Virus record (IMG/VR): IMGVR_UViG_3300022666_000342
Location: 1 to 57,826 of that record
Reading direction: 5' to 3' (one strand)
DNA length: 57,826 nucleotides
Origin: a virus
Taxonomy: Duplodnaviria > Caudoviricetes
The position numbers and the translations under genes were made by a program. Positions 10,055 to 54,084 of the stretch are shown piece after piece (position 1 is the first letter of the stretch; each line of letters begins with the position of its first letter). The notes beneath the pieces were generated by a model, which was given only the letters and a program-made list of their open reading frames with translations, was not told the origin of the DNA and did not search any database.

Positions 10055-10056
10055 TC

Positions 10057-11064: not shown

Positions 11065-11117
11065 GTTCGCTCACAATATGGATTTATACTTATGCAATCA
11101 CTCACAAGGAACACAGC

Positions 11118-11816
11118 ATGAAATATATAACAAGGATTCAAATAACCGAGGCAGACAAAAAAACCATTTATCTAATTTTTAAAGCTCACCCCGAATTAAA
11201 AGGAAATGAAAATCGGGCAGTCTCGTTGGCACTTCACGAATGGAAACGCGCCTATTTAAATGAAAGCGACACCTACTACCCAATCCTTCTACAAGATCTT
11301 GGTAATCCAGATCGCTACGATATTATAAGAGTCCTTAAAGAACCAGGAAAAACAATTGCATCTGGAGAAGAAAAATTAACAGGTTGGCTTGGAACAACAA
11401 ATGACAGCATCTCAAAAACGGCTCTGGGAAAGCTTGACGCTGAAGGGTTGCGAGAACTTCTGCTTGAGTATAACGTCGGGATTGATCCAGTTACCCCAGT
11501 CCGTTACGTAAACTACGCAGTTGGAGGTAGCCGAGCCGCAGAATTGCACAACTACGACTACGCATATCCCTACCAAGGACCATGGATGGGAGTGACACCG
11601 GAGGGAGTAGGTTGGTGCGATGATCCAGCCACTGTAAAAAAGGCTCGAGTAATTATTCAAGATGAATATGTAATCATCATTTTTTCAGATGGTAAAAAGT
11701 GGTTTGTTTTTGATTCTTGCCCCCAAGGAACTGAAAACATGGAAGAACGAGCCAGAGAGATTGTAGGGTTGCGATTTGATCGTGAAAAATTTATTCAGTT
11801 TATCGAAAACAAATAA
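11118..11816 (+). CDS. Low-GC hypothetical protein (moron), possible N-terminal ribbon-helix-helix
   Basis: Own promoter-like TTGTTC-16-TATACT (11063-11090), AAGGA RBS, flanked by twin terminators. Confidence 0.7.
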   Translation: MKYITRIQITEADKKTIYLIFKAHPELKGNENRAVSLALHEWKRAYLNESDTYYPILLQDLGNPDRYDIIRVLKEPGKTIASGEEKLTGWLGTTNDSISKTALGKLDAEGLRELLLEYNVGIDPVTPVRYVNYAVGGSRAAELHNYDYAYPYQGPWMGVTPEGVGWCDDPATVKKARVIIQDEYVIIIFSDGKKWFVFDSCPQGTENMEERAREIVGLRFDREKFIQFIENK

Positions 11817-11840
11817 AAAACAGTCCCACCCAAAAACGCA

Positions 11841-11877
11841 AAGAAAGCGCCGGCAAGTTGCCGGCGCTTTCTTATTT
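11841..11877. terminator. Intrinsic terminator, near copy of 11021-11064
   Basis: AAGAAAGCGCCGGCAA-G-TTGCCGGCGCTTTCTT followed by ATTT. Confidence 0.8.
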
Positions 11878-11914
11878 CCCAACCTATCTCTTAGGAAATT
11901 CGCTCAATAACCTA

Positions 11915-11952
11915 TTGATCTCTCATTTGATTTGTAGTACAATTCAAATGAG
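11915..11952 (+). promoter_or_regulatory. Sigma70-type promoter overlapped by an operator-like inverted repeat
   Basis: TTGATC(11915-20)-17 bp-TACAAT(11938-43); inverted repeat CTCATTTGA...TCAAATGAG at 11922-11952. Confidence 0.6.
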
Positions 11953-12019
11953 TAGCATTTACATCAAAAATATCATCTATAAACATCGTTTTAATCTTAA
12001 AATTAAAATTGAGGATTAC

Positions 12020-12280
12020 ATGGCCGGAAAACAGGGAAAATCAGGGGGGTGCCGTTCTGGAGCGGGAAGACCTCCAAAAAACGCCACCATCGGAAGGAAT
12101 TTTACTTTTGAAAATGGACAACAGGTGAAAATTTCAGTGACGGGGAATGGGTCTGTTCAAAAACTTCTGGCATGCCTGAAGTTAGAACGAGGGGACCCGG
12201 GATACAGGATGCGGTTACGCGGAGATAACGGCTGGGAGTTGACAATTGAAACAGCTACTGATATCAGAGGTGAGCCGTAA
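12020..12280 (+). CDS. Small basic protein with GG.R.GAGRP motif, possibly DNA-binding
   Basis: GAGG RBS, MAGKQGKSGGCRSGAGRPPK; lies upstream of the RM genes. Confidence 0.55.
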   Translation: MAGKQGKSGGCRSGAGRPPKNATIGRNFTFENGQQVKISVTGNGSVQKLLACLKLERGDPGYRMRLRGDNGWELTIETATDIRGEP

Positions 12281-12411
12281 CCTGATTTCTTATCTGGAAA
12301 ACTAAAGTAAAATCCACCGCAGCAAGAAAACAATTTAAATATTTTTCTGGGCAAGGTGGCTTGGTAAATTACCCAAAACCATCTATATTTTTCACCCAAG
12401 GAAGACCTGAA

Positions 12412-14367
12412 ATGATGACAACCGAAGAAACAATTACCCTCGTACCGCTGGGGAAACTACAATGCGTTATAACAAACAAACTACGGGCTGATACCCCAGA
12501 AGAACATGTACGTCAACGTATTGCCAGGAGTCTCGTAGAAGATTACGGATATGATAAAGCCGATATTGAAATCGAGTTTACCGTCAAATTAGGAAGTAGT
12601 AAAAGACGTGTTGATATAGCAATTTTTCTACCTCAAACTAAACATAAACAAGAAAACATCAAAATAATTATCGAATGCAAGAGAGAAGAAATTCGCCCCA
12701 CTGACCGCGATAATGGCACAGAACAACTCAAATCATACCTCTCTGCATGTGCAAATGCTCATTTTGGAATGTGGATAGGTTCCGAGCTACAAGTATGGGA
12801 ACGACAAACATCCGACAAAGGCGAAGTATGTTTTGCAGAAGCAACAGATATTCCACGCTCTGGTTACGATACTCCAAAACCTATTACCTTTACAGAACTT
12901 GTTCCGGCACACGAAGAATTGATCTCCTTACTAAAACGCTGTCACAACTACATTTACGGAAATCAAGGCTTACAAAAAGAGCCCGCATTTCAGGAATTGC
13001 TAAAGTTAATCTTCTGCAAGGTTTATGATGAGGATACCTCATCGGGTGAGATGCGGATTTTTATCAGCAATGACGAACGCCGCTCCGAAATTGGACAAAG
13101 AAGATTACAGAAAACGATCGAACAACTCTTTGAAGATGTAAAAAATCGTTACCCGTACATTTTCGCCCCCGATGAACAAATCCGAATGGACAATAGGGTG
13201 TTAGCTTATGTAGTAGGTGAGTTGCAACGATATTCACTGTTACAAACTGTTGCCGATGTAAAAGGAGCAGCCTATGAACAATTGGTCGGCAGTAATCTAC
13301 GTGGAGATAGAGGAGAATTTTTCACTCCCCGCAATGTCTGCGATATGGCGGCTCAAATGGCACTGGCAACTTACCCACCTGAAAAATGGCTTAAATTGCA
13401 TACCATAGATCCCGCTTGTGGAACTGGCGGTTTTCTCGTAGCGGTACTAAATGTGTGGCGTGAACATCTCGAAAAAATACAACGCACTAAATGGCCGAAC
13501 AATGAAAGTAAAGCCTTAGAAGAAACCGTACGTTTATTAAAAGAAACTGCTAACCAATGTCTTACAGGGATTGATTTTAATCCAATTTTAGTCCGCGCAG
13601 CACAAATGAACTTAGTTATGCAGGGTGACGGTTCCACTAATGTTTATCATGCCAATTCACTTTTACCATCTGGTGAATGGATCTCGGATGTAAGCGATCA
13701 TGTACAACTAGGTAAATTTGACATTGTCCTGACAAATCCACCTTTTGGATCAAGAATCCCCATAGATGATCCTCATATACTGGCACAGTTTGAATTATCC
13801 ACATTTGAAATGGAAAATGGCGCTCGCCGCGCATCCATGCCGCCCGAGCAATTATTCATAGAACGTTGTCTGCAATTACTTAAACCTAATGGACGAATGG
13901 CGATCGTTCTTCCTGACAGCATTTTATCAAACCCTGGCCTTGCATTTATCCGACGCTGGATACTCAAGCGTACACGTGTAATTGCAAGCATAGACTTACC
14001 TCAAGTCACATTCGAGCCGTACACTGGCACCCAAACAAGTGTTTTATTACTGCAAAAGAAAACACGCGAAGAGATGATGATAGAACAGGAAGCCCACAAA
14101 AGCCGTGACTATGAAGTCTTTATGACGATACCTGAAGCCGTTGGGCATGATCGCCGCGGAGAAATTCATTACCTTCGAACACCAGAAGGGGAATTGATTG
14201 AATACGAGGACACCATCACAATAACACGACGCAATGCTAATGGACAACTTATGACAGAACAACGCCGACAAAAAGTACGTGAAAAATTCGACCAATTACC
14301 TGAGGTCGTCCGTTATTTCAAGGAATGGTTATCTAAACAAGAACGAATGAGATGGATCAATGGCTGA
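12412..14367 (+). CDS. Fused restriction endonuclease (HSDR_N-type PD-(D/E)xK) / N6-adenine methyltransferase (type IIB/IIG-like)
   Basis: PEEHVRQ...VDIAIF...IIIECK...QLKSY nuclease motif; GEFFTPR, DPACGTGGF and NPPFG methyltransferase motifs; low GC. Confidence 0.9.
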   Translation: MMTTEETITLVPLGKLQCVITNKLRADTPEEHVRQRIARSLVEDYGYDKADIEIEFTVKLGSSKRRVDIAIFLPQTKHKQENIKIIIECKREEIRPTDRDNGTEQLKSYLSACANAHFGMWIGSELQVWERQTSDKGEVCFAEATDIPRSGYDTPKPITFTELVPAHEELISLLKRCHNYIYGNQGLQKEPAFQELLKLIFCKVYDEDTSSGEMRIFISNDERRSEIGQRRLQKTIEQLFEDVKNRYPYIFAPDEQIRMDNRVLAYVVGELQRYSLLQTVADVKGAAYEQLVGSNLRGDRGEFFTPRNVCDMAAQMALATYPPEKWLKLHTIDPACGTGGFLVAVLNVWREHLEKIQRTKWPNNESKALEETVRLLKETANQCLTGIDFNPILVRAAQMNLVMQGDGSTNVYHANSLLPSGEWISDVSDHVQLGKFDIVLTNPPFGSRIPIDDPHILAQFELSTFEMENGARRASMPPEQLFIERCLQLLKPNGRMAIVLPDSILSNPGLAFIRRWILKRTRVIASIDLPQVTFEPYTGTQTSVLLLQKKTREEMMIEQEAHKSRDYEVFMTIPEAVGHDRRGEIHYLRTPEGELIEYEDTITITRRNANGQLMTEQRRQKVREKFDQLPEVVRYFKEWLSKQERMRWING

Positions 14368-15871
14368 AATAAACGATCACATTCTTACTCATCAAGAACG
14401 TCACCAGCAATTCATTGAATCAGGATGGTTAAATCCAATTTCAATAGCAACGGTTTCGTCTCATTGGCTTTATAATGGCGAAAGCAGACTTGATGGTGGT
14501 TATTATGCAAATGATGCTATTACAGCTTTGCATATCGTAAAAGACAGCGGTTTTCCCATGCAATTACTGGACCAATTGACCGAACCGCCATTTTACCCTA
14601 ATAGATTTAAGCGTATCTATGCAAAAAGCCAAAAAGCCGGTACGCCGTTCCTTACAGCATCTGAAATGCTCCAATTTAGACCGACCAGTGAAGCATTTTT
14701 AGCCAACAATACAAGGGCAGTTAATGTCTGCCAAGTACAACCAAATTGGATATTAGTTACCCGTTCTGGAACAGTGGGAAGATGTGTAATCGTGAATAAA
14801 CGATTATCTCACTTCGCTATTACCGATGATGCAATTCGAGTAAAACCTCGGGAAATACCGGGAGGTTACCTGTACGCTTTTCTTTCCTCGAAAATTGGAC
14901 AAGCACTAATTTCTAAAGATCAATATGGCTCAGCCATCAACCATCTCGAACCGCACCACCTCGCAAAAGTGCCAGTGCCACTACTACCAGAAGAAGCACA
15001 AATGGAAATACACACAGCCATTATGCAAGCTTACACATTGCGAGATGAAGCAAACCAAATGTTGGATGAAGCTGACGATCTACTTCATGAAAGATTGGGG
15101 CTAGTTCATTTTGATGAAGATTTTGTGAAGTATATCTCTGCTTCAAATACATCACAATCTATAACTCGCCTCTATATTCCTCACCCTAGAGCATTTAGCA
15201 TAAAGGCATCCGAATTGAATGATCGCTTGGATGTTTCGTACCACATACCAGTTGTACGAACAGTCACAGAATTACTACACAAAGGAAAATACCTACCAGT
15301 CCCTGTACACGAAATAGCAGAAAATATTTACCTTCCGCCACGCTTTAAACGCATCTATGTAACTGCCCAATATGGAGTCCCATTTTTGCGTCCTTCACAC
15401 CTCCCTCAGATGCGACATTATGATCTTGGGTACATTTCAAACCTTACTAAAGTTTTAGACTTGTTGGCATTAAAATCAGGAGATGTTTTGATAACTTCAG
15501 ACGGAACAGTAGGGAAAATCGGGTTAGTTACAAGTCGAATAACAGGATGGGCAGGAAGCAACAACATTGCTCGCATAACCTGTAAAAATTCCGACTCTGA
15601 GTTTACAAATGGTTATCTAGCAGCATTTTTAAATACACCTTACGGATATCATCAATTAGTACGTGAAATTTATGGTGGAGTAATTGATCATATAGAAGAG
15701 TCGCAAATCGGTTCTGTTCTTATTCCGAATCCACCATCCCACGTTCAGATGGAAATTGGTAAACAAGTTATCGAAGCTTTTGAGAAAAAAGATGAAGCCC
15801 GTGTAATAGAAGAAAATGCTATCCGTAAAATAGAAGCATTATTACTACACAAGGAAGAAACCCACAATTAG
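14360..15871 (+). CDS. HsdS-like specificity subunit
   Basis: Two repeated TRD halves (ILVTRSGTVG...YGSAINHLE; VLITSDGTVG...YGGVIDHIE); overlaps the RM gene. Confidence 0.85.
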   Translation: MAEINDHILTHQERHQQFIESGWLNPISIATVSSHWLYNGESRLDGGYYANDAITALHIVKDSGFPMQLLDQLTEPPFYPNRFKRIYAKSQKAGTPFLTASEMLQFRPTSEAFLANNTRAVNVCQVQPNWILVTRSGTVGRCVIVNKRLSHFAITDDAIRVKPREIPGGYLYAFLSSKIGQALISKDQYGSAINHLEPHHLAKVPVPLLPEEAQMEIHTAIMQAYTLRDEANQMLDEADDLLHERLGLVHFDEDFVKYISASNTSQSITRLYIPHPRAFSIKASELNDRLDVSYHIPVVRTVTELLHKGKYLPVPVHEIAENIYLPPRFKRIYVTAQYGVPFLRPSHLPQMRHYDLGYISNLTKVLDLLALKSGDVLITSDGTVGKIGLVTSRITGWAGSNNIARITCKNSDSEFTNGYLAAFLNTPYGYHQLVREIYGGVIDHIEESQIGSVLIPNPPSHVQMEIGKQVIEAFEKKDEARVIEENAIRKIEALLLHKEETHN

Positions 15872-15902
15872 ATAAAAAAATTTCAACAACCCTAAAAATA
15901 CA

Positions 15903-15931
15903 AAACCGGGCCCTTTATCAGGGCCCGGTTT
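15903..15931. terminator. Bidirectional terminator at convergent junction
   Basis: AAACCGGGCCC-TTTATCA-GGGCCCGGTTT. Confidence 0.75.
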
Positions 15932-15934
15932 CGC

Positions 15935-15954
15935 ATCTGCAAACGTTTGCAGAT
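15935..15954. promoter_or_regulatory. Palindrome copy 2 (ATCTGCAAACGTTTGCAGAT)
   Basis: Exact 20-bp core, 3 bp from the terminator hairpin. Confidence 0.85.
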
Positions 15955-15956
15955 AG

Positions 15957-16250
15957 CTACGCGGAAGGAACCTCGATCGGCGCTTCCGTCGCCTCAGCTG
16001 GCTGATCGGTCTGGGCCGGAGCCGGCTGAACCGGATCTTGAATCACCAGACTGAACTGACCATTAACAGTCTGGAACGCGTAGCGGCACCCATCAATAGA
16101 AATGCTGGGTCTCAGCACGCTGGAAAACCCCACCGCCAGCGCCGTGAGCGCTTCCTCCTGCGCCTGAACCTCAGCCTTCGCAGTCTCCAGGCTGCGGATG
16201 ATGGCGAGAGCTGCAGTCTTCTGCCCATTGCTCAACGGGATAACTCTCAT
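15957..16250 (-). CDS. Hypothetical protein (end of tail operon)
   Basis: Start MRVIPLS after GGAAAGGA. Confidence 0.55.
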   Translation of the reverse strand: MRVIPLSNGQKTAALAIIRSLETAKAEVQAQEEALTALAVGFSSVLRPSISIDGCRYAFQTVNGQFSLVIQDPVQPAPAQTDQPAEATEAPIEVPSA

Positions 16251-28204: not shown

Positions 28205-28759
28205 CTACTTTGCGCCCAGCCGGCGCATCCTCTGGTAAATGACCTGGGTGGCCTGGTTTTCCACCTGACGTTCAGCATCCCGGCTTAAACCGATAAAGGG
28301 CCGGGCCGGCACAATTGAATTGCTCATCGTAAGACCGCCCGAATTCAACGTTCTGATGCGGTTCGGCGTCTTCGGATCGTCTTCGGCGCTGAGGATAATG
28401 ATGGTGCGGCCCAGGATGCGCATGAACTGCGTAACATTCCGGGGATGCTGCGGATCGGTAAAGGACCGCTTGAGGTCGCCAGTCCGCACCAGGATTGGAT
28501 GCTCGGCCCCAACGCTGAACCGAATCCCGCGCCCATCGATGCCCAACCGGCGTTCTGCCTGAGTGCGACGCGCCAGCGGCACCCAGGGCTCGCCCGAAGG
28601 TTCGCTCTCCCGCTCAAAATTAAGCGCGATCCCGCGCCGCGCCGCGTCGGCGATGATTTCGCTTTCCCGGTTGGAGAGCAGGCCGACCTCAGATAGCGAC
28701 TTCCACCAGGAATCCGAAGCTTTACTGCGAGCAACGGTAACTTTAAGCGGCATTCCCAT
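28205..28759 (-). CDS. Phage virion morphogenesis protein (Mu gpG / P2 gpS-like)
   Basis: NFERESEPSGEPWVPL...ILVRTGDLKRS...VPARPFIGLS. Confidence 0.8.
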   Translation of the reverse strand: MGMPLKVTVARSKASDSWWKSLSEVGLLSNRESEIIADAARRGIALNFERESEPSGEPWVPLARRTQAERRLGIDGRGIRFSVGAEHPILVRTGDLKRSFTDPQHPRNVTQFMRILGRTIIILSAEDDPKTPNRIRTLNSGGLTMSNSIVPARPFIGLSRDAERQVENQATQVIYQRMRRLGAK

Positions 28760-30086
28760 TCTCCACTTTTTCAGGCTTCAATCCCAGGCCGGCCAACCGC
28801 TCCAGGATCACGGAGCACAACTCCGGCTTCAACTCGAAGCCGAACCCCAGCCGGCCCATGGTCTCGGCCGCCTCGAACATCGTCCCCGACCCAGAAAAGG
28901 GATCGTAGACCACATCGCCTCGCTTCGACCCATCGCTCATCAGCCGCGCGATCAATTCGACCGGCTTCTGGGTTGGATGCAAGGGGTTGGCCGCCGGTTT
29001 GTCGTACTCCAGAACCGTCGTACAAAACTTGCGGTAGAACTTGTGCCGGCCGCTCCAGCCGTACACTACAAAAGAAAAGGCCTTCTCCGGGCCGGCCGCC
29101 TCGATCACGCGCCGCTCCCGGCGGTCGCCCATCGCCACAAATTCATGGCGCGGGGAATAATCGGACCGCCCAGGGACGTGAAGATTTTTCACCCAGACCA
29201 GATAAGTGCTCAAGGTGAGCCGGCAATCGTCCAGAGCCAGCCGCAGGTTGTGCAGCTCGCGCCCCGACATGAAAATATAGAAGGTGTTGTAGCTCGCCCA
29301 GGGAATCGGACGGAGGAAAGACGCGAAGAAAGCGCGGTAATCGGTCCGCGCATCGTTGGCGACTTCCCGCGAAGCCGCCTTCGCAGTGGAGGAATGCCGC
29401 CGGCTGACCAGATCGAGGAAGTCGCTCTTCCCGCCGTAGTCCACTCCATAGGGCGGATCGGTGAGCAAGAGCGCCACTTTACGATCGCCCAACAGTTGCT
29501 TCACGTTGGCCGGGATGGAGCAATCCCCACATAGGAGATAATGCGCCTGACCGGGATGGGCCAAAGAGGGGATGCGCCAGAGGTCGCCGGCCTGGACCGC
29601 CCACTTCTCCTGGGCCGACTCCGCTACGGTCGGCTCGCGGTCGCCCTCCGGGGAGAAGTCGCCGGCCAGCAGACCGTTTTGATTGGCGAGATATTCCAGA
29701 AACTGAGCAACCGCCGGATCTTCGCTTTTTACCTGCAGGAGCAATTCTTCCAGTTTGCCTTTGTCCGCCTTCGCCAGCTGGGCGATCGGATCGTAGGCCA
29801 GCAGAAGCAGGTCGGCCTCTTCGTCGGTCAGGTCGGTGATCGCTACCCGCACAGTCAGCCCCGGCACAGTGCGCTTGCGCAGGTGACCGTCGACGAACGC
29901 CAGCCGGCCGCCAGCGCGCGCGGAGTAGTAAGCGAGAGGGACGCCGGCCCAACCAACTTCCCGCAGGACTCCCTCAAGAGCGTCCTGCTGCTCCTGGGGA
30001 TGGGTCTTCGGGTTCCGGGGATTGTCGTCGATCTCTCCCAACGTCATCTCTCGAACCTCTGTGATTCTGTTCCTGATCGCGTCCAT
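28743..30086 (-). CDS. DNA N6/N4 methyltransferase with ParB-like N-terminus
   Basis: NPRNPKTH...VDGHLR ParB-like segment; LLCGD, DPPY, HPTQKPVEL, DPFSGSGT; AGGAGGAG RBS. Confidence 0.9.
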   Translation of the reverse strand: MDAIRNRITEVREMTLGEIDDNPRNPKTHPQEQQDALEGVLREVGWAGVPLAYYSARAGGRLAFVDGHLRKRTVPGLTVRVAITDLTDEEADLLLLAYDPIAQLAKADKGKLEELLLQVKSEDPAVAQFLEYLANQNGLLAGDFSPEGDREPTVAESAQEKWAVQAGDLWRIPSLAHPGQAHYLLCGDCSIPANVKQLLGDRKVALLLTDPPYGVDYGGKSDFLDLVSRRHSSTAKAASREVANDARTDYRAFFASFLRPIPWASYNTFYIFMSGRELHNLRLALDDCRLTLSTYLVWVKNLHVPGRSDYSPRHEFVAMGDRRERRVIEAAGPEKAFSFVVYGWSGRHKFYRKFCTTVLEYDKPAANPLHPTQKPVELIARLMSDGSKRGDVVYDPFSGSGTMFEAAETMGRLGFGFELKPELCSVILERLAGLGLKPEKVENGNAA

Positions 30087-30095
30087 GCTCCTCCT

Positions 30096-30133
30096 AAAAA
30101 TAGCGACGCGAGGCAAAAGCCACCCCGCGCCGC
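30096..30133 (-). terminator. Terminator-like hairpin inside the late operon
   Basis: Minus strand GCGGCGCGGGG...CCTCGCGTCGC followed by TATTTTT. Confidence 0.5.
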
Positions 30134-37782: not shown

Positions 37783-38043
37783 ATGAAAAACTTAACCGCC
37801 GCCGCGATCCAGGAGAAACTGCTCGAATACGCCGAACTGGCCCTCGAAGAGGAGACCGGAGAGTACATCACCACGCAGATGACAGAGGGAGTGATGAACG
37901 ACCTAAACCTCTACAGCGACGAAGCCTCCGAAGCCATCGAAGAACTGATCGATCGGATGGCAGTAGATCTGAGCGAACGCCTTCCGCAGAGACTGCCGGC
38001 CAGCACCCTGGCCGAATACGGCCGGGAGATTAAAGCCCTTTAA
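37783..38043 (+). CDS. Small acidic array protein 4
   Basis: MKNLT start; strongly Glu/Asp-rich. Confidence 0.7.
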   Translation: MKNLTAAAIQEKLLEYAELALEEETGEYITTQMTEGVMNDLNLYSDEASEAIEELIDRMAVDLSERLPQRLPASTLAEYGREIKAL

Positions 38044-38104
38044 TCCCCTCGGGCCGGCCCCGAAAGGAGCCGGCCAGCTAAAAACAAACGAAAGGAACAG
38101 GAAA

Positions 38105-38287
38105 ATGGAACTCACAAAACAGATCGAAGAAAGAAAACGTCAGATCGCAGATTATCTCGAAAGATTGAATTCCAGAATTAACATGTATGTGGAGGATCAC
38201 GAGAACCCGACAACAAGAAACGTCGATCTACTCGGAAAACTGATCGACTCCATCGATCAAGCCATGGATCTCATGCCGCCCGATTAA
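38105..38287 (+). CDS. Small array protein 5
   Basis: MELT start; resembles the C-terminal helical half of protein 1. Confidence 0.7.
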   Translation: MELTKQIEERKRQIADYLERLNSRINMYVEDHENPTTRNVDLLGKLIDSIDQAMDLMPPD

Positions 38288-38293
38288 TTACCC

Positions 38294-38334
38294 AGAAGAA
38301 ATCCGCCTGATTGAAAATCAGGCGGGTTTCTTCT
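38294..38334. terminator. Bidirectional terminator
   Basis: AGAAGAAATCCGCCTGATT-GAA-AATCAGGCGGGTTTCTTCT. Confidence 0.8.
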
Positions 38335-38527
38335 ATAAAAGTACACCCCCATTAAAAATCCCTTTTTAAGCCCTCGACTAACGCTTGATTAACACCTTCT
38401 AATTACAATAGACCTAACCATAACCCTGGCACAACTTAACTAACGTAAAGCGATCTTATGCGTTAGAATAGTATAAAATTAACCCGCCATTTATTTTATT
38501 TCCCTTGTTTCCCAGGAGGTAAGTACC

Positions 38528-40474
38528 ATGCCAACAAAAAGTTCAGTTGAAAAGCCAAAATCAGAAACGCCGCATCTTAACCCAAGTTCGCAGCCTCAAG
38601 TTTCAGGAATTGCGCCCGATGGATTCGAGACGCCCATGATCTCGCCCACTGGATTAAATGCCCACACTTTAAACCCTCGTACATTACCCTCGATTCAACG
38701 AACCTTCGGTAATCAAGCTGCAAGCCGAATGATTCAAACTCAAAGACTGAATCATTCCCCAATTCAGGCTTCACCGATGATCCAACGTCAGGTTGAAAAA
38801 ACTGACGGAAGCTCAGCTATGGGGAAATATAAGATTGGAAGAGTGAATAACGATTGGATTCCCATTAAATGGGAAGGAGGGGATACCGTTCAAGATTTAA
38901 TAACGCTCTCTGAAATTAAAGAAGACTGCTTGGTAAAAAAAATAACGACGGCTTCTTCTCCCTCTACATCATCATCGGGGAAAAAGCCAGTTAAAAAATC
39001 AAGCAACTCATTCGCGCAGCAGCAAGAACAACTTGAAAATCTAAGTAATCCAAAAGAAACAGAAAAAATAGTCGGTAAAAGCGCTGCTTTGGAGGCAAAT
39101 AGTTCTTTCATTTTAATACCTGCCTTAAATTCACCAGTAAATAAGAATCATATGGCAGTTCTCAGTTCATTGTCTCGCCTGGCTCGCACTTTTGGGAAGA
39201 AAATATCCAAAGGCGGTCAAGAAGCACAGGCTATCTTTATCGATGGGAAAATTGTGCTCACAGGCAATAGTAATGCAGAAACAGCCGCTTTAGCAGCTCA
39301 AATACCCCAAGAAGGAAGCACTGCATCCCAAACAAAAACAGCATTACGATCTTTGTTTGCACTCTCATACGCAAAAGAGGGACTTCCTAAGGAGCTATCG
39401 AGTACTAAAGGTGAGCGCTCTTATGAGGATCTTCAAGTTGCCCGCTCCCAAGATCTTAAAATTGTCGAGGATTGGATTGATTTAGTTTCCCTCCCTGATG
39501 AGCAAAAATTTGCCAAAGTCGTATCCAGTGTCCAAGAAGCACAAACAACTGCAGCTCCTTTAATTATTTTATCGACTCCAACAAGCGATTCTTCTGAAGA
39601 CAGTAGCAGCCCAAAAGTAGAAAAGAAAGGAGCAAAAAAGGTAGAGGGAAAGAAAAAAGTTGGGGAAAAAGCAAAAGAAAAGAAAGGAGCAAAAAAAGTA
39701 GAGGAAAAGAAAAAAATAGGAGGAAAAGCAAAGCTAGAAGAGAAAGAAGAGGTAAAAGAAAAGGAACCGGTAAAAGAAGAGAAATGGCACGCTGAACAAA
39801 AGCTGCTGCTTGTTCTGGCCGAATATCTAAAAAGGGAGATTCCGGTTTCACAAGTCGCAATAGCTGGGGTTAAATACCCTTGTAATTTATGCAAGGCAGA
39901 ACTCGCTCTCCACAAAAAAGCATTAAAAATGGCCTATCCTACGTTAAAAGTATCGTATGACAAGATAAAGGACTCTTCGAAAGAGTCTTCAATTTCTCAA
40001 AATACAACGATGACAACAAATACTACCACAACAGAACTCACTACCAATACATCAAGCTCTACATCAAGCATGAAGGATCTGGATTCTTTTGGATATGAAG
40101 AAGATAATCATACAAGAAAACCTATCGAAGACAAGAAAGTAACAGAGGGAAACGCAACGCCGGCGCATAAACGTCTTATTTCCGATAACTTGACTAAAGA
40201 AGAATCCTTCACGAAAGAAGAATCAGTCAAGAAAGAATTGCCGCCAGCTTTCGCACATTATCTTAAACTCTTACAAGACCCATCCTCCATGGTGCAATCC
40301 CAACCATCATCATCATCATCATCTTCTTCCTCAAAAGGAATAGAAGTAGAAAAAAGCGGGGAGGGAGAAAAGGGCGAAGAGAAAGAAAAGAGCGAAGAAG
40401 GAGAAAAGGGTAAAGGGGTAGAAAAAGGCGGAGAGGAAAAAAAGGGGGAAAATGGCGACGGAGAGGAAGATTAG
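38528..40474 (+). CDS. Putative Zn-dependent nucleic-acid deaminase toxin with eCIS-cargo-like N-terminus
   Basis: HAEQKLL (39788) ... KYPCNLC (PCNLC at 39878-39892); N-terminal IQRTFGNQAA...PIQ..PMIQR; low GC; AGGAGGT RBS; K/E/S low-complexity tracts. Confidence 0.7.
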   Translation: MPTKSSVEKPKSETPHLNPSSQPQVSGIAPDGFETPMISPTGLNAHTLNPRTLPSIQRTFGNQAASRMIQTQRLNHSPIQASPMIQRQVEKTDGSSAMGKYKIGRVNNDWIPIKWEGGDTVQDLITLSEIKEDCLVKKITTASSPSTSSSGKKPVKKSSNSFAQQQEQLENLSNPKETEKIVGKSAALEANSSFILIPALNSPVNKNHMAVLSSLSRLARTFGKKISKGGQEAQAIFIDGKIVLTGNSNAETAALAAQIPQEGSTASQTKTALRSLFALSYAKEGLPKELSSTKGERSYEDLQVARSQDLKIVEDWIDLVSLPDEQKFAKVVSSVQEAQTTAAPLIILSTPTSDSSEDSSSPKVEKKGAKKVEGKKKVGEKAKEKKGAKKVEEKKKIGGKAKLEEKEEVKEKEPVKEEKWHAEQKLLLVLAEYLKREIPVSQVAIAGVKYPCNLCKAELALHKKALKMAYPTLKVSYDKIKDSSKESSISQNTTMTTNTTTTELTTNTSSSTSSMKDLDSFGYEEDNHTRKPIEDKKVTEGNATPAHKRLISDNLTKEESFTKEESVKKELPPAFAHYLKLLQDPSSMVQSQPSSSSSSSSSKGIEVEKSGEGEKGEEKEKSEEGEKGKGVEKGGEEKKGENGDGEED

Positions 40475-48386: not shown

Positions 48387-48833
48387 TTAAAACGGGATGT
48401 TGTCCTCCTCGTCTGGCGGAGGACCTCCGGCCCCAGGCCGGCGCCCGCCGGCCATTCCCACCGGCGCGCCCACGTCACCATCCCCGGCCGACCCGCTCAG
48501 GAATTTCACGTTCTCCGCTGTCAGCTCAAACGACGCCCGCGGCTTCCCGTCCTCACCGGTCCACACTCGCGGCCCGCCGGTCTCCTTGTCCGGCTGGAGC
48601 CGGCCCTCCACCAACACCTTGCTTCCCTTTTTCAGGTATTGGTTGACCGTCTCGGCCTGCCGCCGCCAGCAGGTCACCCGAAACCAAATCACTTCCTCCC
48701 CCTGGGAGCCGTCCGGGTTGTTCCACTTCCGATTGGTAGCCACGCTGAAGGTGGTGACCGGAGCGCCGTCCGGCGTGTAGCGCATTTCCGGGTCTCTGCC
48801 CAGGTTTCCGATGATGATGACTTTGTGATACAT
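48387..48833 (-). CDS. ssb: Single-stranded DNA-binding protein
   Basis: KVIIIGNLGRDPEMRYTP...FSVATNR...VEGRL...acidic tail EEDNIPF. Confidence 0.97.
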   Translation of the reverse strand: MYHKVIIIGNLGRDPEMRYTPDGAPVTTFSVATNRKWNNPDGSQGEEVIWFRVTCWRRQAETVNQYLKKGSKVLVEGRLQPDKETGGPRVWTGEDGKPRASFELTAENVKFLSGSAGDGDVGAPVGMAGGRRPGAGGPPPDEEDNIPF

Positions 48834-48863: not shown

Positions 48864-49655
48864 TTACCTCACAATCCCCAGCGACCGCGCCGACCCGGAA
48901 ACCAGATCGACGTAGGTCGCATACACGTCCAGATCCCGACTCACCAGGAGCCGAGACAGGTACGACGCCGCCCAGGTACTCATGGCCGTGTTGACCATGA
49001 GCGACTGCTGCTCCATCACCGCCAGATCGGCGCAGCTCAAAGGATGCTCCGCTTCCTCCTGAACCTCCAGCAACTCAGGATGCTGGATCGACGGAAGAGG
49101 GATCTCGTTGCACATTCCCATCAATACCATCGGTTTTTGAACGCTGCTGTTCCCGAGCAAGACCTGTCCAGAATCCCGATGATTTCCACAATCGAGCCAC
49201 CATACAGAACTATTTTTGTGCGCCTCATGGATCGCCGTCCGCCCTGACGCGCCGTCGACACACCCAATAACGATTTTTAAAATCCTCGGGCCAAATTCCG
49301 ACGTCGCTTCTCTGAAAAAAGCTTCCTGCGTTTGATCGTTAAAACTCTGGATCGCAAATTCTATATTCAGGCCGAAAGCCAGACTATACCGACGCGCCAG
49401 GGCCTCAGCCTTCGGCATCCCCACCTCAGCCGGGCAAAAATTCTGCCGGCCAAGATTCTTCCTCTCAACAGAGTCATAATCGACAAAACCGACCTTCCCC
49501 GTCATCCCTTTTCGATCCAAAAGGTGATAAGCCAACCGGGCAATGTGAAGCGCCATAAAGGACCCCGTTCCCCCACACCCCACCAGCATGATGGCGTACC
49601 CCTTTATCTCTCCCAACTCGACGCGCGCCCGCTTTTCAATTTTTATCTGCTCCAT
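48864..49655 (-). CDS. ThiF/E1-like adenylyltransferase (PRTRC ThiF family)
   Basis: VGCGGTGS, D.D.VE.KNLGRQNF, IGCVD, WLDCGN, LSCA (candidate catalytic Cys), QSLMVN. Confidence 0.9.
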   Translation of the reverse strand: MEQIKIEKRARVELGEIKGYAIMLVGCGGTGSFMALHIARLAYHLLDRKGMTGKVGFVDYDSVERKNLGRQNFCPAEVGMPKAEALARRYSLAFGLNIEFAIQSFNDQTQEAFFREATSEFGPRILKIVIGCVDGASGRTAIHEAHKNSSVWWLDCGNHRDSGQVLLGNSSVQKPMVLMGMCNEIPLPSIQHPELLEVQEEAEHPLSCADLAVMEQQSLMVNTAMSTWAASYLSRLLVSRDLDVYATYVDLVSGSARSLGIVR

Positions 49656-50275
49656 GAAAATTCCCCCATGTCACGCATCTCCCCTATTCCCCCAAATAAA
49701 ACCGTCGCCGGAAGATCGACAAAATCACCGTAAATTCCCAACCGGACCCGGATCTCAGGCTGCCGCTCGAAAATCAAACCCATAACCGCGTAAAAGCGAA
49801 ACCCCAACTCATCTTTATTGTCGGTACCGCTAAAAAACGCTCGATAATTGCAATGTGAATGCAGGTCGCAAAACGTCTCAGGACCATCGCCCCCTAAATA
49901 TTGGAGCGAGTCAGCGGTCGCCGTCTGAACCGGCCGCGTCAACCGCACCATGCCGTTTTGAAACGAATAATGGTATCCGGCCTCAACCGGCTTAACAGCC
50001 GCCTGCCGGCGAGCGTCTTCCAGAGTAGTCAGGAGCAACCGCTCAGGGATTCTCCCGTGTCGGATTTTCACCCAGGGCCGGATCTCGGGCAGCCCCGCCA
50101 CGCGGACGCGGGAGATCGGAACGCACACATCAAAGTGGGAATTCTCTGCCCGCTTGAACACCCCATTCCCGGCCAAAACATAACCGTAAGCCTTCCCCTC
50201 CAGGGCAGGGACCTCGTCGCCCATGATTCCGTAACATACGGGATTGAACTTCATCGCACTAATAACTGCTTCCAT
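49643..50275 (-). CDS. JAB/MPN metalloprotease (PRTRC protein A-like)
   Basis: YVLAGNGVF N-terminus; E...DLHSH...AFFSGTD.KDE JAMM motif. Confidence 0.9.
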   Translation of the reverse strand: MEAVISAMKFNPVCYGIMGDEVPALEGKAYGYVLAGNGVFKRAENSHFDVCVPISRVRVAGLPEIRPWVKIRHGRIPERLLLTTLEDARRQAAVKPVEAGYHYSFQNGMVRLTRPVQTATADSLQYLGGDGPETFCDLHSHCNYRAFFSGTDNKDELGFRFYAVMGLIFERQPEIRVRLGIYGDFVDLPATVLFGGIGEMRDMGEFSWSR

Positions 50276-50960
50276 TCAGAACCTCCCCCAAAGTGAGACC
50301 GGCCTCAATGAGATCATTCATGGGGTAAGCAGACACCCCCTCAATCTCCCGCCACAATTCGGTAACCCTGGAATTATGGCGCTTGCTTTTTTGATTCCCC
50401 AGATCGTTATTGAAATAGCTCTCAAAAAATTCCTTAATGGCCCCTGAAATGCCGTCCAGAGACGGAGCCGGGAAATCGGCCGTTCCCTGACACACATGAC
50501 CGTCGTCGTATATGTTGGGATAAGGAGCCTTAAAAAGCCTCGATCCCATATCCACCGGCCGTTGCTTGACCGCAAAGACCATAAAAGTTTTGGCCGTGAT
50601 AAACAAGAGCGGCGGACACGGAATCTTCCCCGACCAGCCCCCGTCCATCCTCACCTTCCGCTGGGAAGGTGGAAGATAGACAGCCGCTTCTTCGCGTCCA
50701 TTGGCCCGGCGGTAAAAAATTGTATTTTTAGGGAGCAAAGGAGTCTCGATTAAAATGCCGCCAAAAACGGCAGCGAGATCCTCAGGAGAAACCTCAAACG
50801 TCGCATAAGCTTGCCCGCCCTCGTTGTGTTTCGTCAAAATGATCGACTCCGAATAAACCCGTATCTCAGCCCGTAAGACCTGCGTGTCAGGCTTCTCCGC
50901 CGGCACCGAGAAACCGCCCAGGGCCATCTCAAACACGTTGGAAGCATGAACTCTAAGCAC
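50259..50960 (-). CDS. Prokaryotic E2 family D protein (PRTRC protein B-like)
   Basis: PPLLF...VFAVK.RP...LFKAPYPNIYDDGHVCQG...FFESYFN; GTG start after GAGGAGG. Confidence 0.85.
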   Translation of the reverse strand: MLRVHASNVFEMALGGFSVPAEKPDTQVLRAEIRVYSESIILTKHNEGGQAYATFEVSPEDLAAVFGGILIETPLLPKNTIFYRRANGREEAAVYLPPSQRKVRMDGGWSGKIPCPPLLFITAKTFMVFAVKQRPVDMGSRLFKAPYPNIYDDGHVCQGTADFPAPSLDGISGAIKEFFESYFNNDLGNQKSKRHNSRVTELWREIEGVSAYPMNDLIEAGLTLGEVLNGSSY

Positions 50961-51855
50961 GATATTCCTCCTCGACTGAAGCAAAGAACTTCGACAGAAG
51001 CTGCCTGGAATTTTCAGTGGATTCGTACCAGTTTGTGAAACGATAAAACCGCTCAACATCATCCCGAATCCGAGCGTAAAAATCCGCATACCGCCTGATC
51101 ACATCATAATCCACCACCATCTCAGTATCATCGTAGCCACAGTCTACGCGCCACGCCGAAGGAGTGTCTATAAACGGATTATTCGTGTTCCCCAGAACGC
51201 ACTGGTATAGAAAGTCAACGCCTGAAAAAATGCCCGTCTCTTTTCTGAACCTATCGAGAGTCCAGTCCTCGTTCTCAAAGAAAAAGAAACCCGGATCGTC
51301 GTCATCGGAATCTTCCCCCAGCAGACCGGCTTCCGAAAGCAGCTCGGAATACAGAATAGCGATATCTTCCTCGCCGCTGTAATCTTCAATCGGAATAGAA
51401 GCCCGACCTGAAACCGCGTCCATGCACGCGACTAAAACCCGCTCGTATTCTTCCAATTCGTCGAAAGATGCTCCCCCACGCGGAACGCCAAACGAGACGA
51501 ATGGAATTCCATACATTAAAACATCCGGCTCGGACCCATATTCAAAGTCCCAGGTATCAAATATCCCATCCAACATCGCCAGATCCACCGGGAAGAGTTC
51601 TGCGTCAACTTTATCGACGAACTCCGCTTGAACCTCAACAAAACTCAGATCTCCCCGAAGATTCTCGCCGAATAGCAGTTTGTGAATTCGGCGCAGCCGA
51701 TACGGCCCCGTAGTCCAGGAAAGCAATAAATCTCGGGCCGGCCTGACGCACTGCAACCCCGAAGGGAGCACATCAAAGAGCCGGTTATACAGCTCGTAAT
51801 AACTCAAAATCCCTGAGGAACTTCCCCCGCTGGTATCGGTTTTAAAGATTGACAT
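50953..51855 (-). CDS. Acidic hypothetical protein within the Ubl cassette
   Basis: Coupled to the E2 gene; D/E-rich; occupies the slot of the helical accessory gene of PRTRC loci. Confidence 0.65.
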   Translation of the reverse strand: MSIFKTDTSGGSSSGILSYYELYNRLFDVLPSGLQCVRPARDLLLSWTTGPYRLRRIHKLLFGENLRGDLSFVEVQAEFVDKVDAELFPVDLAMLDGIFDTWDFEYGSEPDVLMYGIPFVSFGVPRGGASFDELEEYERVLVACMDAVSGRASIPIEDYSGEEDIAILYSELLSEAGLLGEDSDDDDPGFFFFENEDWTLDRFRKETGIFSGVDFLYQCVLGNTNNPFIDTPSAWRVDCGYDDTEMVVDYDVIRRYADFYARIRDDVERFYRFTNWYESTENSRQLLSKFFASVEEEYRA

Positions 51856-52067
51856 CTCGCATTGATTCCTTCCATCCTTTTGACATGCCCGGAAATTTCA
51901 GCGGCCGCCTTCTCCAGGTCGCGTTCGAGCCTTTGATTAAATTCCCGATCCTCCGGGTAAACTGGATAAAACTCTTCCAACTGAAACAACAGCTCAACGC
52001 CCAGAAGGCGGAGCGGCTGTAAACCAGCCAGCCGCTCCACTACGCCCGCCACATCTATGCCGGCCAC
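51804..52067 (-). CDS. Hypothetical protein
   Basis: GTG start right after the Ubl gene stop; fills the operon gap. Confidence 0.45.
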   Translation of the reverse strand: MAGIDVAGVVERLAGLQPLRLLGVELLFQLEEFYPVYPEDREFNQRLERDLEKAAAEISGHVKRMEGINARCQSLKPIPAGEVPQGF

Positions 52068-52068
52068 C

Positions 52069-52626
52069 TCACCGGCCCTCGCCTGCAGGAGCCAGTTCCG
52101 GCGCCTGGACCTGCACACACACCCGGCGCGCCGCTCCCGGCCCGGCGATCGAGTCCAGCGCCTCAATTGCCTTCCAGATGTGCGCCGGGTACATCCCGGA
52201 GTAAACCTCGCCGGTCTCCAGGCCAGCGTCATGGTCCTTGAAGTAGTCCTGAAGAATTGCCACCAACGCCCCCATGGCATTGGCCTTCAGAATCGACCGG
52301 TAAGCCTGAGCCTGCATCATCAGGCCCAGCACAACGTCGGTATGCAGATCGATGTGCGTGTCTCCAGCCCGTTGGACATGCTCGACCCGAGTCTGGAGCA
52401 GCAGGAATTCCTCATCGCTGGGGATGGAGGAAAACGCCCCCTTGGTCCCCGCTTTCTTCGCAAACACGACCCGCTCAGTGCCGTCCGGCATTACCTTCGT
52501 CTCAATGCTGGCGTTTGCCAATTCCGGGAAATACCCGGCGAACTGCGCTCGCACCTCTTCCTTCGACATAGAAGGATCGTGGTCTTCGTATTCTTTATCT
52601 CCGTAAACAAAAATCCGCTTTGCCAT
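52069..52626 (-). CDS. Ubiquitin-like protein (PRTRC protein C-like) with C-terminal extension
   Basis: KRIFVYG...D.DPSMS.EEVR..FA.YFPELANA.I...VF.KKAGTKG (aa 1-63), then ~120 extra aa. Confidence 0.85.
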   Translation of the reverse strand: MAKRIFVYGDKEYEDHDPSMSKEEVRAQFAGYFPELANASIETKVMPDGTERVVFAKKAGTKGAFSSIPSDEEFLLLQTRVEHVQRAGDTHIDLHTDVVLGLMMQAQAYRSILKANAMGALVAILQDYFKDHDAGLETGEVYSGMYPAHIWKAIEALDSIAGPGAARRVCVQVQAPELAPAGEGR

Positions 52627-52629
52627 TTT

Positions 52630-54084
52630 TTACTCCTTCCCGCCGAAGAATTCATTCCGAGCAACGTCCACCAGGGACGCCAGATCAGCATACCGGCCGC
52701 TGTGCCAGACAGAAGGGCCAGCCCCATCCAGGCCGACCGTCACGATTACGCGCCGGTTGTCCAGGTCCGGCCCTTCCTGAACCCGAATCATAATGACGGC
52801 AGTCTTCGATTTATCAGGAGCAGCCTCAACCGGCTTCGCCACCGGAACCGGAGCCGGCATCGGATTCACCGCCGGAGTTGAAACTGGCTTAACCGCTGTC
52901 GCCGGAACGGGAACGCGAGAAACAACGGGATTCACTGCCGGAGCCGGAGCATGCTGCGCCTGGGGAGCCGGCCGGACCGGAGTCACGTACTGAACCACCG
53001 GAGCCCGCGGAGCCGGAACCTCTTCCTCATAGCCGACCTCATCATCTTCGGATTCTTCCCCGGTCTCTTCGCCGATCTCCTCAATCTCGCCGACCTCTTC
53101 GGCTTCTTCGTCAGGATCGAACGAAGACACCGCCGGCCGACCACCGACAACTTTGCCGCCCACCCGAATCACCGGTTCATCCTGCATCAAATCGGTGACC
53201 TGAGCGGAAATGGAAGCCGTCCGATCAGCGAAGCGCGGCGCCCAGGCCGACGCCCCGCCCAGTTGGGCCGGAGCCACAACAGGAGCAGCCTCGGCCAGGA
53301 GCAAAGCCGGTTCGGGTTCTGCTTCGCGGCCAATGTTGGCCGTCGTCATCGTGTAAACTTTCCCGCCCCGCTCCACCAGCCGTTCGCCAGGGTCCCCGTC
53401 CGGGTACATCTCCCGGCGAATCTTCGCCACAAACGGCCCGGAGACATCCGCAACCTCGGCAACCCTTCGATCGCTCCAGCCGCGCCATTCCTCATCCGCC
53501 AGAAGCATCCGCACCGCCTTGCGCTTATCGTCATCCGTCCGGCGAATCCCATGCCGGCCGTTCGCCCCCACGGAATACAGCAACGCCTCCCGCTTTCCGC
53601 CCGTATGGATCTCGGCCCATATCATCTCAATGCCGGCCTGCCGCGCGGCTTCCACCCGGTGGAAGCCATCGGCCAACCAGTAATGCTCGCCGTCGCTGAA
53701 AACCACAACCGGAGGAAAGTTTGCCCCCTCAGCCATTTTGTCGGCATACTCGCCGACCGTGAAAAGATCCATCTGAACGCGGGTCTGAAGATCCGGGTCC
53801 GAGACGATCATGTCCAACGCCAGCATCCGATTGTTGTTGCTCACCATCTCCCGCTGCTCCTTCTTTTGGTTGGCGGCGATCGCGCCGCTCACAATCTGAA
53901 ACGTGTTGTTTACCGGGAGAGAATCCCGGCCAAGAATCGAACTGGCCGTCCGATGGGAGCGACCGGAGCCGCCCCCACCGTGAGACAGCGCACCCAGGAC
54001 CCGCGGCTTGGGGGGATGGCAACGCGGGCACTTCCACCCAGAAAACCGAAGATTGCAATCCTTGCAGGTCCTGAATGTAGCCAT
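52630..54084 (-). CDS. ParB-like protein (ParB N-domain + HTH) with N-terminal Zn finger and Pro/Glu-rich linker
   Basis: FPPVVVF..G..YWLADGFHRVEAA; N.RHG..RT.DDKR; WSDRRVAEVADVS..FV; possible internal start at 53847. Confidence 0.85.
   Translation of the reverse strand: MATFRTCKDCNLRFSGWKCPRCHPPKPRVLGALSHGGGGSGRSHRTASSILGRDSLPVNNTFQIVSGAIAANQKKEQREMVSNNNRMLALDMIVSDPDLQTRVQMDLFTVGEYADKMAEGANFPPVVVFSDGEHYWLADGFHRVEAARQAGIEMIWAEIHTGGKREALLYSVGANGRHGIRRTDDDKRKAVRMLLADEEWRGWSDRRVAEVADVSGPFVAKIRREMYPDGDPGERLVERGGKVYTMTTANIGREAEPEPALLLAEAAPVVAPAQLGGASAWAPRFADRTASISAQVTDLMQDEPVIRVGGKVVGGRPAVSSFDPDEEAEEVGEIEEIGEETGEESEDDEVGYEEEVPAPRAPVVQYVTPVRPAPQAQHAPAPAVNPVVSRVPVPATAVKPVSTPAVNPMPAPVPVAKPVEAAPDKSKTAVIMIRVQEGPDLDNRRVIVTVGLDGAGPSVWHSGRYADLASLVDVARNEFFGGKE

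Follow-up and report, generated by a model that had tools for sequence, protein, structure and literature searches.

The 57,826-nucleotide viral sequence IMGVR_UViG_3300022666_000342 (Duplodnaviria; Caudoviricetes), which was analysed over its full length and is referred to here as the window, contains a prophage cassette with a gene for a ubiquitin-like (Ubl) protein at positions 52069-52626 on the minus strand. The Ubl domain of the encoded protein ends in a conserved glycine, after which the reading frame continues for another 122 residues, and comparison with related loci indicates that the position after this glycine is an in-frame swappable slot for cargo domains, with boundaries that are precise to the base. 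The complete product is probably a pro-protein, from which a JAB/JAMM metallopeptidase encoded in the same cassette would release a modifier as well as a free 122-residue protein. An earlier note on this stretch had described the gene as such a precursor; judged from the sequences compared here, tails after the terminal motif GTKG are widespread and variable in the family and the window holds one instance of the slot, a point that the note had missed.

Ubl precursors that are cut by their cognate JAB are already known in bacteria (the Bub and Bil systems), and the ubiquitin fusions of eukaryotes are textbook knowledge. Bacterial and phage Ubl conjugation has become experimentally tractable only recently, in CBASS Cap2, Bil, and Bub, and the present locus offers a simple test case, in that E1, E2, and JAB are encoded separately and the Ubl comes naturally joined to a folded passenger. 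A literature search, without subscription journals or supplements, retrieved no functional study of a cassette of the 6d/PRTRC type and no description of variable cargo after the Gly of its Ubl. Taken alone, the gene is of modest interest; the wider reach lies in the swappable slot with its base-precise borders.

Ubl domain and its terminal glycine

The Ubl-plus-cargo open reading frame (ORF) starts with an ATG, encodes 185 amino acids, and ends with a TGA stop codon at 52069-52071. Residues 1-63 (52438..52626, minus strand) form a ubiquitin-like beta-grasp domain, as recognised by the Prok_Ub and PRTRC_C profiles, by AlphaFold2 (AF2) modelling, and by fold matches. The Pfam model Prok_Ub (PF14454) aligned with residues 3-61 over profile positions 6-64 of 64 and scored 42.9 bits against a cut-off of 25, which places the domain in this family. 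The NCBIfam model PRTRC_C (TIGR03738) aligned with residues 3-63 over its full length, to position 66 of 66; its score of 44.4 bits is a near miss of the curated cut-off of 45.95, and the domain is therefore called PRTRC_C-like. In the AF2 model, strands at residues 4-8, 11-14, 40-45, and 51-56 and a helix at residues 22-30 make up a beta-grasp fold, with a predicted local distance difference test score (pLDDT) of 91-97 over residues 1-60. Fold searches with VIA gave middling Z-scores of about 5, and the rows were consistently Ubl folds (Fubi, MoaD, ubiquitin fusions), including Fubi 8bs3_B with a Z-score of 5.1 (57 amino acids, root mean square deviation 2.7) and likewise MoaD 6jc0_A.

The domain ends as ...FAKKAGTKG, with the terminal motif A59-G-T-K-G63 read from the ORF at 52438-52452 (minus strand), and is followed by 122 in-frame residues (AFSSIPSDEEFLLL...). 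Because the alignments with PF14454 and TIGR03738 both run to the profile ends, the known family model stops at G63, and the remainder of the ORF is extra to it. The delineation in the earlier note, i.e., a Ubl of residues 1-63 that ends in GTKG and is followed by 122 in-frame residues, agrees with the ORF and with both profile ends. The AF2 model of the whole protein consists of two domains with a low-confidence linker (residues 61-70, pLDDT 63) between them, and GTKG is invariant in the fused forms. K62, the Lys beside the terminal Gly, is the sole fully invariant column in 87 aligned Ubls, surpassing even the Gly in conservation, and may serve in recognition by JAB or E1 or as an acceptor. 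The genome itself holds a single Prok_Ub match, and such matches were found in 2 of 60 genomes of relatives.

Variable sequences after the terminal glycine

Forty-three related loci were taken from genomes, IMG/VR viral contigs, and metagenomes, only two of them contributed by the genome-collection scan, and reading their DNA through from the Ubl yielded 30 distinct strings of Ubl end plus tail. A stop codon stands directly after the Gly in 11 of the 30 distinct strings (locus L018 being counted here), four strings continue for 2-9 residues past the Gly, and the other 15 for 33-240 residues, these long tails being mostly unrelated to each other. The earlier note had proposed an alignment of homologs for a variable or absent passenger, and both forms were thus encountered. 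It had also held that homologs with a stop directly after GTKG would speak against the precursor; such homologs do exist, and they do not refute it, since the passenger is conserved as a fusion elsewhere.

The borders of the variable sequence are best seen in three loci (L014, L013, and L015), which have nearly identical Ubl domains and flanks that are 75-89% identical. Homology between them is lost with the final base of the Gly codon and is back 13-14 nucleotides before the stop codon of the tail, at the ATG of the next gene, which encodes a small protein designated PxGF (the two frames overlap). The inserts in these loci, of approximately 88, 400, and 253 nucleotides, respectively, are unrelated and are all open in the Ubl frame. 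This break behind the Gly codon, with homology restored from the following ATG onwards in three phages, marks the position after the Gly as an in-frame swappable cargo slot. The synteny from ParB to E1 is kept in the loci of sufficient length, which are mostly viral contigs of 28-57 kb.

Several kinds of tail could be distinguished in the slot. A helical tail of the type found in the window is present in L005 and L013, and a low-complexity tail of 33 amino acids (REGEGERGSGG...) in L004, L014, L017, and L043. Zn-ribbon-like tails with several CxxC motifs are present in L007, L016/L025, and L026/L027; this CxxC/CxxH class also includes L042 and the proteins P0026, P0027, P0033, P0039, P0042, and P0049, and some of its members share a module of the form ...CERHYE..LL.SRCERQG...V..RMKAA.FAVW..AEAEVAGLL.... 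The Zn-ribbon-like tails suggest a second conserved cargo family of the same slot.

A search of representative proteins retrieved 251 proteins at E<=0.001, and the counts that follow cover the 150 that were listed. Among these, 123 cluster representatives have a single Ubl domain: the chain stops at the Gly in 7, runs on for 1-5 residues in 13, and is longer by more than 5 residues in 103. The other 27 scored hits were multi-Ubl calls in a phmmer re-scan, and the multi-Ubl proteins that were inspected are head-to-tail arrays joined as GTKG/M, like polyubiquitin. Two very large proteins from the representative search hold many Prok_Ub-like stretches: P0004 (5751 amino acids) has 26 by the phmmer re-scan and 16 by library search, and P0021 (1580 amino acids) has 9 and 8, respectively, both far exceeding the 2-5-unit polyUbl arrays.

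The passenger domain

The passenger or cargo domain of the window comprises residues 64-185 (52072..52437, minus strand) and consists of a linker (residues 64-70), four helices (residues 71-86, 96-131, 148-161, and 165-174 in the AF2 model), and a disordered end. When modelled alone by AF2, it reached a mean pLDDT of 83.5 and a predicted template modelling score of 0.62, so the structure prediction that the earlier note had suggested for both halves gave a confident model for each. The earliest in-frame ATG, GTG, or TTG beyond G63 is the gtg of V99, and the conserved first helix, which thus lacks a start codon of its own, can be translated only from the start of the Ubl. Its 366 nucleotides remained open in 493 of 20000 mononucleotide shuffles (2.5%), and the GC content by codon position (0.71/0.42/0.76) has the coding pattern of the neighbouring genes. 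The small number of open shuffles, the coding GC pattern, and the existence of homologs together indicate that the passenger region is coding.

Among the matches listed from the representative search, P0009 (193 amino acids) aligned with residues 2-172 of the query, and P0022, P0030, P0084, P0112, and P0141 aligned beyond residue 105, the tail of P0084 being of another type. A passenger of the window type is fused after GTKG in P0009, P0141, P0022, P0030, P0112, P0152, L005, and L013, all of which share a first module approximating [ST]D.[DE]L..L...A..AG....l..P..vL.L after GTKG. A second module (..DYF...........P..v..A...L) is common to the window, P0009, and P0141. Over nine sequences, of which three hold both modules, the identity is 16-33%. 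The conservation of the passenger, its coding GC pattern, and its confident fold point to purifying selection on the tail. Moreover, a profile of six tails gave six matches in 5.8 billion proteins (29-308 amino acids long), in a word-based search of limited sensitivity; all six have an N-terminal Ubl and none is a stand-alone protein. With the full protein, a word-based search returned the protein itself only among proteins of 101-324 amino acids and none among shorter ones.

Family scans of the passenger were empty for PHROGs (E<=1) and Pfam (E<=10), the NCBIfam scan gave only a noise hit to a short-chain dehydrogenase/reductase model (E 0.048), and the top feature in the ESM Atlas scored 0.76, which is under the lead level. 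Foldseek with the full model gave no row at E<=0.001. Two candidate relationships were rejected. Profile matches of the tails to artificial multi-RecA fusions in the PDB (E 2.6e-4) contained no single stretch that passed and were attributed to inflation by repeat copies, and an origin of the passenger by divergence from the PxGF protein encoded downstream obtained an hhalign probability of 3%.

Reliability of the junction

In the Logan assembly of the probable source sample (X1), which was made with a different assembler and is not an independent sample, the 1201 bases from 51700 to 52900 were identical to the window, with 0 substitutions and 0 indels at a word depth of 54.6. A second sample (X2) spanned 51935-52267 only, short of the junction, and a third (X3) had none of this region. 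The Logan contig with this stretch is 61,894 bases long, and the protein collection gives a 192,100-base contig for the same protein. A sequence error is unlikely. Nor is the extension a recent read-through, because at least eight other sequences carry this passenger behind GTKG, it was never found alone, and its conserved first helix lacks a start codon. The identical second assembly and the conserved passenger fusions thereby contradict the sequence error or read-through mutation that the earlier note had named as the alternative.

Processing enzymes and the predicted cut after G63

The JAB protein of the cassette (49643..50275, minus strand) contains a JAMM signature, E98 followed by H139-S-H141-x7-S149-x2-D152, and none of the 10 JAB sequences departs from it at E98, H139, H141, S149, or D152; the JAB segment of L007, which has a stop near its end, was left out of this alignment. 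The description of type 6d includes a JAB-N domain with a strictly conserved Arg and Trp; in the same 10 sequences, several of which are segments with truncated N-termini, R89 hardly varies and the N-terminal half has no Trp common to all. The invariant residues of the E2-like protein include G197, C200, and G202, with C200 present in 11 of 11 sequences. No invariant His was found C-terminal to this Cys in the 11 aligned E2s, which are tblastn segments with incomplete ends, and the E2 deviates in this respect from the description of 6d enzymes, for which such a His is given as absolutely conserved. All 11 sequences of the E1-like protein keep GCGGTGS, R70/Q71/N72, D134, and C208 unchanged.

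The complex of JAB, Ubl residues 1-80, and Zn was predicted with a median score of 0.75, against 0.00 for the best control. In calibration, 58 of 80 solved complexes attained the mark, as did 2 of 110 mismatched pairs. The runs share at least 43% of their contacts, and the pLDDT of the partner is at least 69. In the modelled interface, JAB residues 98, 139, 149, 151-152, and 155 meet Ubl residues 59-63 and an invariant FPE patch at residues 32-35, and the model thus places the AGTKG end (A59-G63) at the JAB active site. A search of the PDB with the JAB profile was empty for sequence relatives at E<=0.1. The residue after the Gly (position P1') is depleted in Pro, which occurs in 1 of 115 sequences against 7.1 expected, and is Ala, Gly, or Ser in 57 of 115; as these sequences are related, the binomial P of 0.006 overstates the case.

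Precedents for such a cut have been reported. In the natural Ubl-E2 fusion BubAB, the JAB of BubCD cleaves immediately behind G229 (10.1101/2024.11.21.623953), and BilC cuts a BilA-GFP fusion after G97 (10.1101/2023.09.26.559546). For the operons discussed here, JAB processing of the Ubls was predicted by Iyer et al. in 2006, who also noted polyUbls for operon type 6e (PMC1779556).

The cassette and its phage setting

The genes of the cassette all lie on the minus strand in the order ParB-like protein, Ubl plus cargo, PxGF protein, 300-residue protein, E2, JAB, and E1, and this order is shared with 11 further loci. Directly upstream of the Ubl gene, a ParB-like protein of 484 amino acids is encoded at 52630..54084 (phrog_1033, E 1.1e-16), for which Pfam gave no match and NCBIfam no match at E<=0.01; this gene is syntenic in the related loci. 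Downstream of the Ubl gene, the ORF at 51804..52067 encodes the small helical PxGF protein of 87 amino acids, which ends in ...PQGF and was recognised by sequence reading, tblastn, and motif scan. Its probable GTG start (52065-52067) lies 1 base past the Ubl stop and is preceded by GAGGG 8 nucleotides upstream. Homologs directly after the Ubl gene were found by tblastn in L005, L006, L008, L010, and L011, and ORFs with a terminal PxGF by motif scan in nine loci (L005, L007, L008, L011-L016), with no family match in Pfam or NCBIfam. The PxGF proteins have approximately 77-92 amino acids, always follow the Ubl gene, and share a conserved C-terminal ...P.P....P.GF. PxGF is itself fused in frame past the Ubl Gly in 11 of the Ubl homologs that were listed, as well as in loci L003 and L032.

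The next ORF (50953..51855) encodes a 300-residue protein without a matched family, the true start of which possibly lies downstream of 51855. It has a weak syntenic tblastn match in L005, L007, L008, L015, and L016, and may correspond to the 'novel alpha-helical protein' described for the 6d operons. The E2-like conjugating enzyme (Prok-E2_D/PRTRC_B-like) was assigned to the longest ORF at 50259..51089, with 79 bits for PF14460 and 70.6 bits for PRTRC_B (TIGR03737), the latter below the cut-off of 131.45. These longest ORFs overlap, by 137 nucleotides for the 300-residue protein and E2 (50953-51089) and by 52 nucleotides for PxGF and the 300-residue protein (51804-51855). The real starts of E2 and of the 300-residue protein are probably further downstream, for E2 because its hidden Markov model match starts at residue 116. 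The JAB/JAMM metallopeptidase, the predicted processing enzyme, was recognised by its motif and is PRTRC_A-like, with 57.5 bits for TIGR03735 (cut-off 101.8) and 21.6 bits for Prok-JAB PF14464 (gathering score 25). The E1-like adenylating enzyme of the ThiF family (48864..49655) scored 144.9 bits for PRTRC_ThiF (TIGR03736), just above the cut-off of 144.75, and an SSB gene (48387-48833, minus strand) neighbours the cassette.

A PRTRC cassette is defined in TIGRFAM by ParB, ThiF, and proteins A-F. Only ThiF of this set passes its curated score in the window, with A, B, and C below theirs, and no match was found to the ParB, D, E, and F models, D-F having been compared with the 87-, 300-, and 322-residue neighbours. 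The gene set of type 6d, i.e., Ubl, JAB, E1-like, and E2-like proteins plus an additional helical protein, is present, and by its gene content the cassette resembles 6d and is a divergent relative of PRTRC.

The wider region contains genes of a tailed phage, including those for a large terminase, a portal, a head protease, a major head protein, and a Gp3-like protein. Within this structural region, a 457-residue protein (28743-30116, minus strand) matches ParB-like and DNA methyltransferase PHROGs (phrog_498, E 1.1e-66), and is a ParB-methyltransferase fusion. Finally, islands of low GC content (0.41-0.47) at 10001-16000 and 38001-40000, compared with 0.55-0.65 for the rest of the window, may be recently acquired inserts.

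Discussion

The reading that is preferred here, and that we regard as fairly probable, is that a phage-borne ubiquitination-like cassette, akin to 6d and PRTRC, makes the 185-residue product as a pro-protein. Residues 1-63 would be the modifier, and the JAB/JAMM enzyme of the cassette would cut the peptide bond between GTKG and AFSS, directly after G63. This cut would expose a C-terminal Gly for adenylation by the ThiF-type E1 and subsequent transfer to the Cys of E2, and it would at the same time free a helical protein of 122 residues, which could not be made otherwise, its conserved first helix lacking any separate start codon. In related phages, the slot would hold a stop, a short propeptide, the PxGF partner, a Zn-ribbon-like domain, or other unrelated domains. 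Cleavage, the identity of the protease, conjugation through E1 and E2, and any function of the cargo are what we infer, and the anatomy implies 1:1 synthesis of cargo and modifier, with cargo release tied to the modifier-activating cut. The maturation of a precursor by JAB, as put forward in the earlier note, is in line with the relatives that stop at the Gly, the GTKG/M arrays, the JAMM residues, the complex model, the P1' residues, and the published precedents; its wording that JAB 'must cleave' was too strong, and the 'protease-gated switch' that it derived from this is speculation.

Several observations weigh against the pro-protein reading. The cut after G63 is a prediction from sequence comparison, modelling, and analogy. 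One of the three complex runs scored 0.12 only, and, complexes of JAMM proteins with Ubls having already been solved, the passing of the complex model may reflect likeness to solved complexes or fold memory. The JAB match lies below the Prok-JAB gathering score, and PRTRC_A, B, and C are below their NCBIfam cut-offs. The passenger-bearing homologs are all metagenome singletons, and no RNA runs were listed with this stretch. Fold searches with the passenger stayed in the noise range for helical models (VIA best Z 5.3, with YebC 4f3q_A over 67 amino acids; BFVD best E 0.98), so that the cargo is without family or fold match. Moreover, the share of long tails differs sharply between the cluster representatives (103/123) and the distinct loci (15/30); the representative figure is inflated because clustering at 50% identity splits tail variants, and the locus count was weighted more.

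Among the explanations that depart from the pro-protein reading, one holds that the fusion is never cut and that the beta-grasp is a non-conjugated docking domain of the Rad23 or parkin type, which would tether the helical domain to E1, E2, and JAB or to ParB. It is favoured by a passenger that is always seen fused and by the many family members with long C-terminal parts; the top Foldseek row, AtBAG1 (4hwi_B), also combines a Ubl with a helical bundle, but at E 0.012 and a template modelling score of 0.24 this match is not significant. An adaptor of this kind is nevertheless unlikely, given that GTKG is invariant in the fused forms, that near-identical Ubls end with a stop at the Gly or carry unrelated tails, that the catalytic residues of E1, E2, and JAB are intact, that the linker is modelled as flexible, that Pro is depleted at P1', and that residues 59-63 occupy the JAB site in the modelled complex. 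A different possibility accepts the cut and considers the tail a removable cap or the decaying remnant of an inserted gene, functionless once released. The confident fold of the passenger (pLDDT 83.5), its two modules conserved in nine sequences, and its coding-type GC at the three codon positions make this quite improbable for the window, even though no function could be assigned to the passenger and the short (2-9 residues) or 33-residue low-complexity tails of some relatives do look like run-on into the next start.

Maturation might also be the task of another protease, from the host or from the phage, with JAB acting as a deconjugating isopeptidase only. JAB is kept where the Ubl already ends at the Gly (L006, L008, L009, and L010), so processing is not its sole role; the AGTKG tail is modelled at the JAMM site, the JAB of the same operon performs the pre-processing in both bacterial systems that have been studied, and no further peptidase was noticed in the cassette in Pfam and NCBIfam scans, which together leave such a division of labour with a small chance. 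Least probable is that the extension is an artefact of assembly or sequencing or the result of a very recent stop loss. That the Ubl frame closes right at the Gly in 11 of the 30 distinct loci and that the exact protein is a singleton in the protein collection would fit an artefact, and these points are opposed by the identical sequence from a different assembler (depth 54.6, no indel), by the same passenger after GTKG in P0009, P0141, P0022, P0030, P0112, P0152, L005, and L013, and by the coding GC pattern in a region that only 2.5% of shuffles leave open.

Beyond the pro-protein reading of the single gene, a broader proposal, which we hold tentatively and at somewhat less than even odds, is that tailed phages with this cassette possess a hypervariable in-frame slot, through which diverse start-less accessory proteins, such as the helical domain of the window, Zn-ribbon-like proteins, and PxGF, are made as Ubl-cargo pro-proteins, so that the phage JAB gates both the release of the cargo and the activation of the modifier. 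Such a ubiquitin-fusion device for expression and timing would be exchanged by recombination at the Gly codon and at the next ATG. Should the cargoes have functions, phages would thereby possess a new means of carrying and timing accessory proteins, and the ubiquitin-ribosomal protein fusions would have a prokaryotic counterpart; if they are inert, it is just another Ubl with a propeptide, which is ordinary.

Comparison with known systems

Eukaryotic ubiquitin precursors are made as arrays (polyubiquitin) or as fusions (UBA52/RPS27A), from which cuts by deubiquitinases (DUBs) past the terminal Gly free the parts 1:1. They end in GG and carry fixed ribosomal passengers, whereas the Ubl described here ends in KG and the passengers differ between close relatives, so that the resemblance is one of mechanism only.

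In bacteria, BubAB of the Type I Bub system (6E.1; Ye, Gong, Chambers, Corbett, 10.1101/2024.11.21.623953) comes close in being a natural Ubl fusion that is cut by its own JAB/JAMM just past the conserved Gly, giving a conjugatable Ubl and a free second protein, as is predicted here. As described for Bub in that report, the passenger is always an E2, JAB is fused to E1, and the chemistry is that of an oxyester; in contrast, the window has separate E1, E2 (with the invariant Cys200), and JAB genes, is phage-borne, and encodes a helical passenger that varies between relatives. BilA and BilC of BilABCD (Chambers et al., 10.1101/2023.09.26.559546) are similar in that a JAB DUB pre-processes the Ubl past its reactive Gly and can remove a large passenger (artificial GFP). 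According to that account, the natural extension of BilA is a single residue, and the system, which has a multidomain E1, serves the host in antiphage defence; it is likened here by mechanism, not by Prok_Ub sequence.

Phage lambda TAPI with the JAB of protein K likewise has a Ubl linked to a C-terminal globular domain, for which a JAB cut at the last Gly of the Ubl was predicted (PMC1779556). In the description given there, it differs from the window in its tail-assembly context without E1 or E2 and in belonging to another Ubl family, and its cleavage is likewise a prediction.

The cassette itself is most readily compared with type 6d/PRTRC as outlined by Iyer, Burroughs and Aravind in 2006 (PMC1779556), with which it shares a Ubl with a C-terminal Gly, an E2-like protein, a JAB, a ThiF-type E1, and an extra helical protein. 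The likeness to PRTRC extends to the ParB-like neighbour and to matches with the Prok_Ub, Prok-E2_D, PRTRC_A, B, C, and ThiF models. Departures from the 6d/PRTRC descriptions are that PRTRC_A/B/C score below cut-off, that ParB/D/E/F are not matched, that the E2s have no invariant His, and that the carrier is a tailed phage rather than a plasmid or an integrative and conjugative element. The 6d Ubl is described in that survey as small and stand-alone, its 6d entry making no mention of a C-terminal cargo (PMC1779556); the Ubl of the window has 122 residues past the Gly, and its relatives show both forms.

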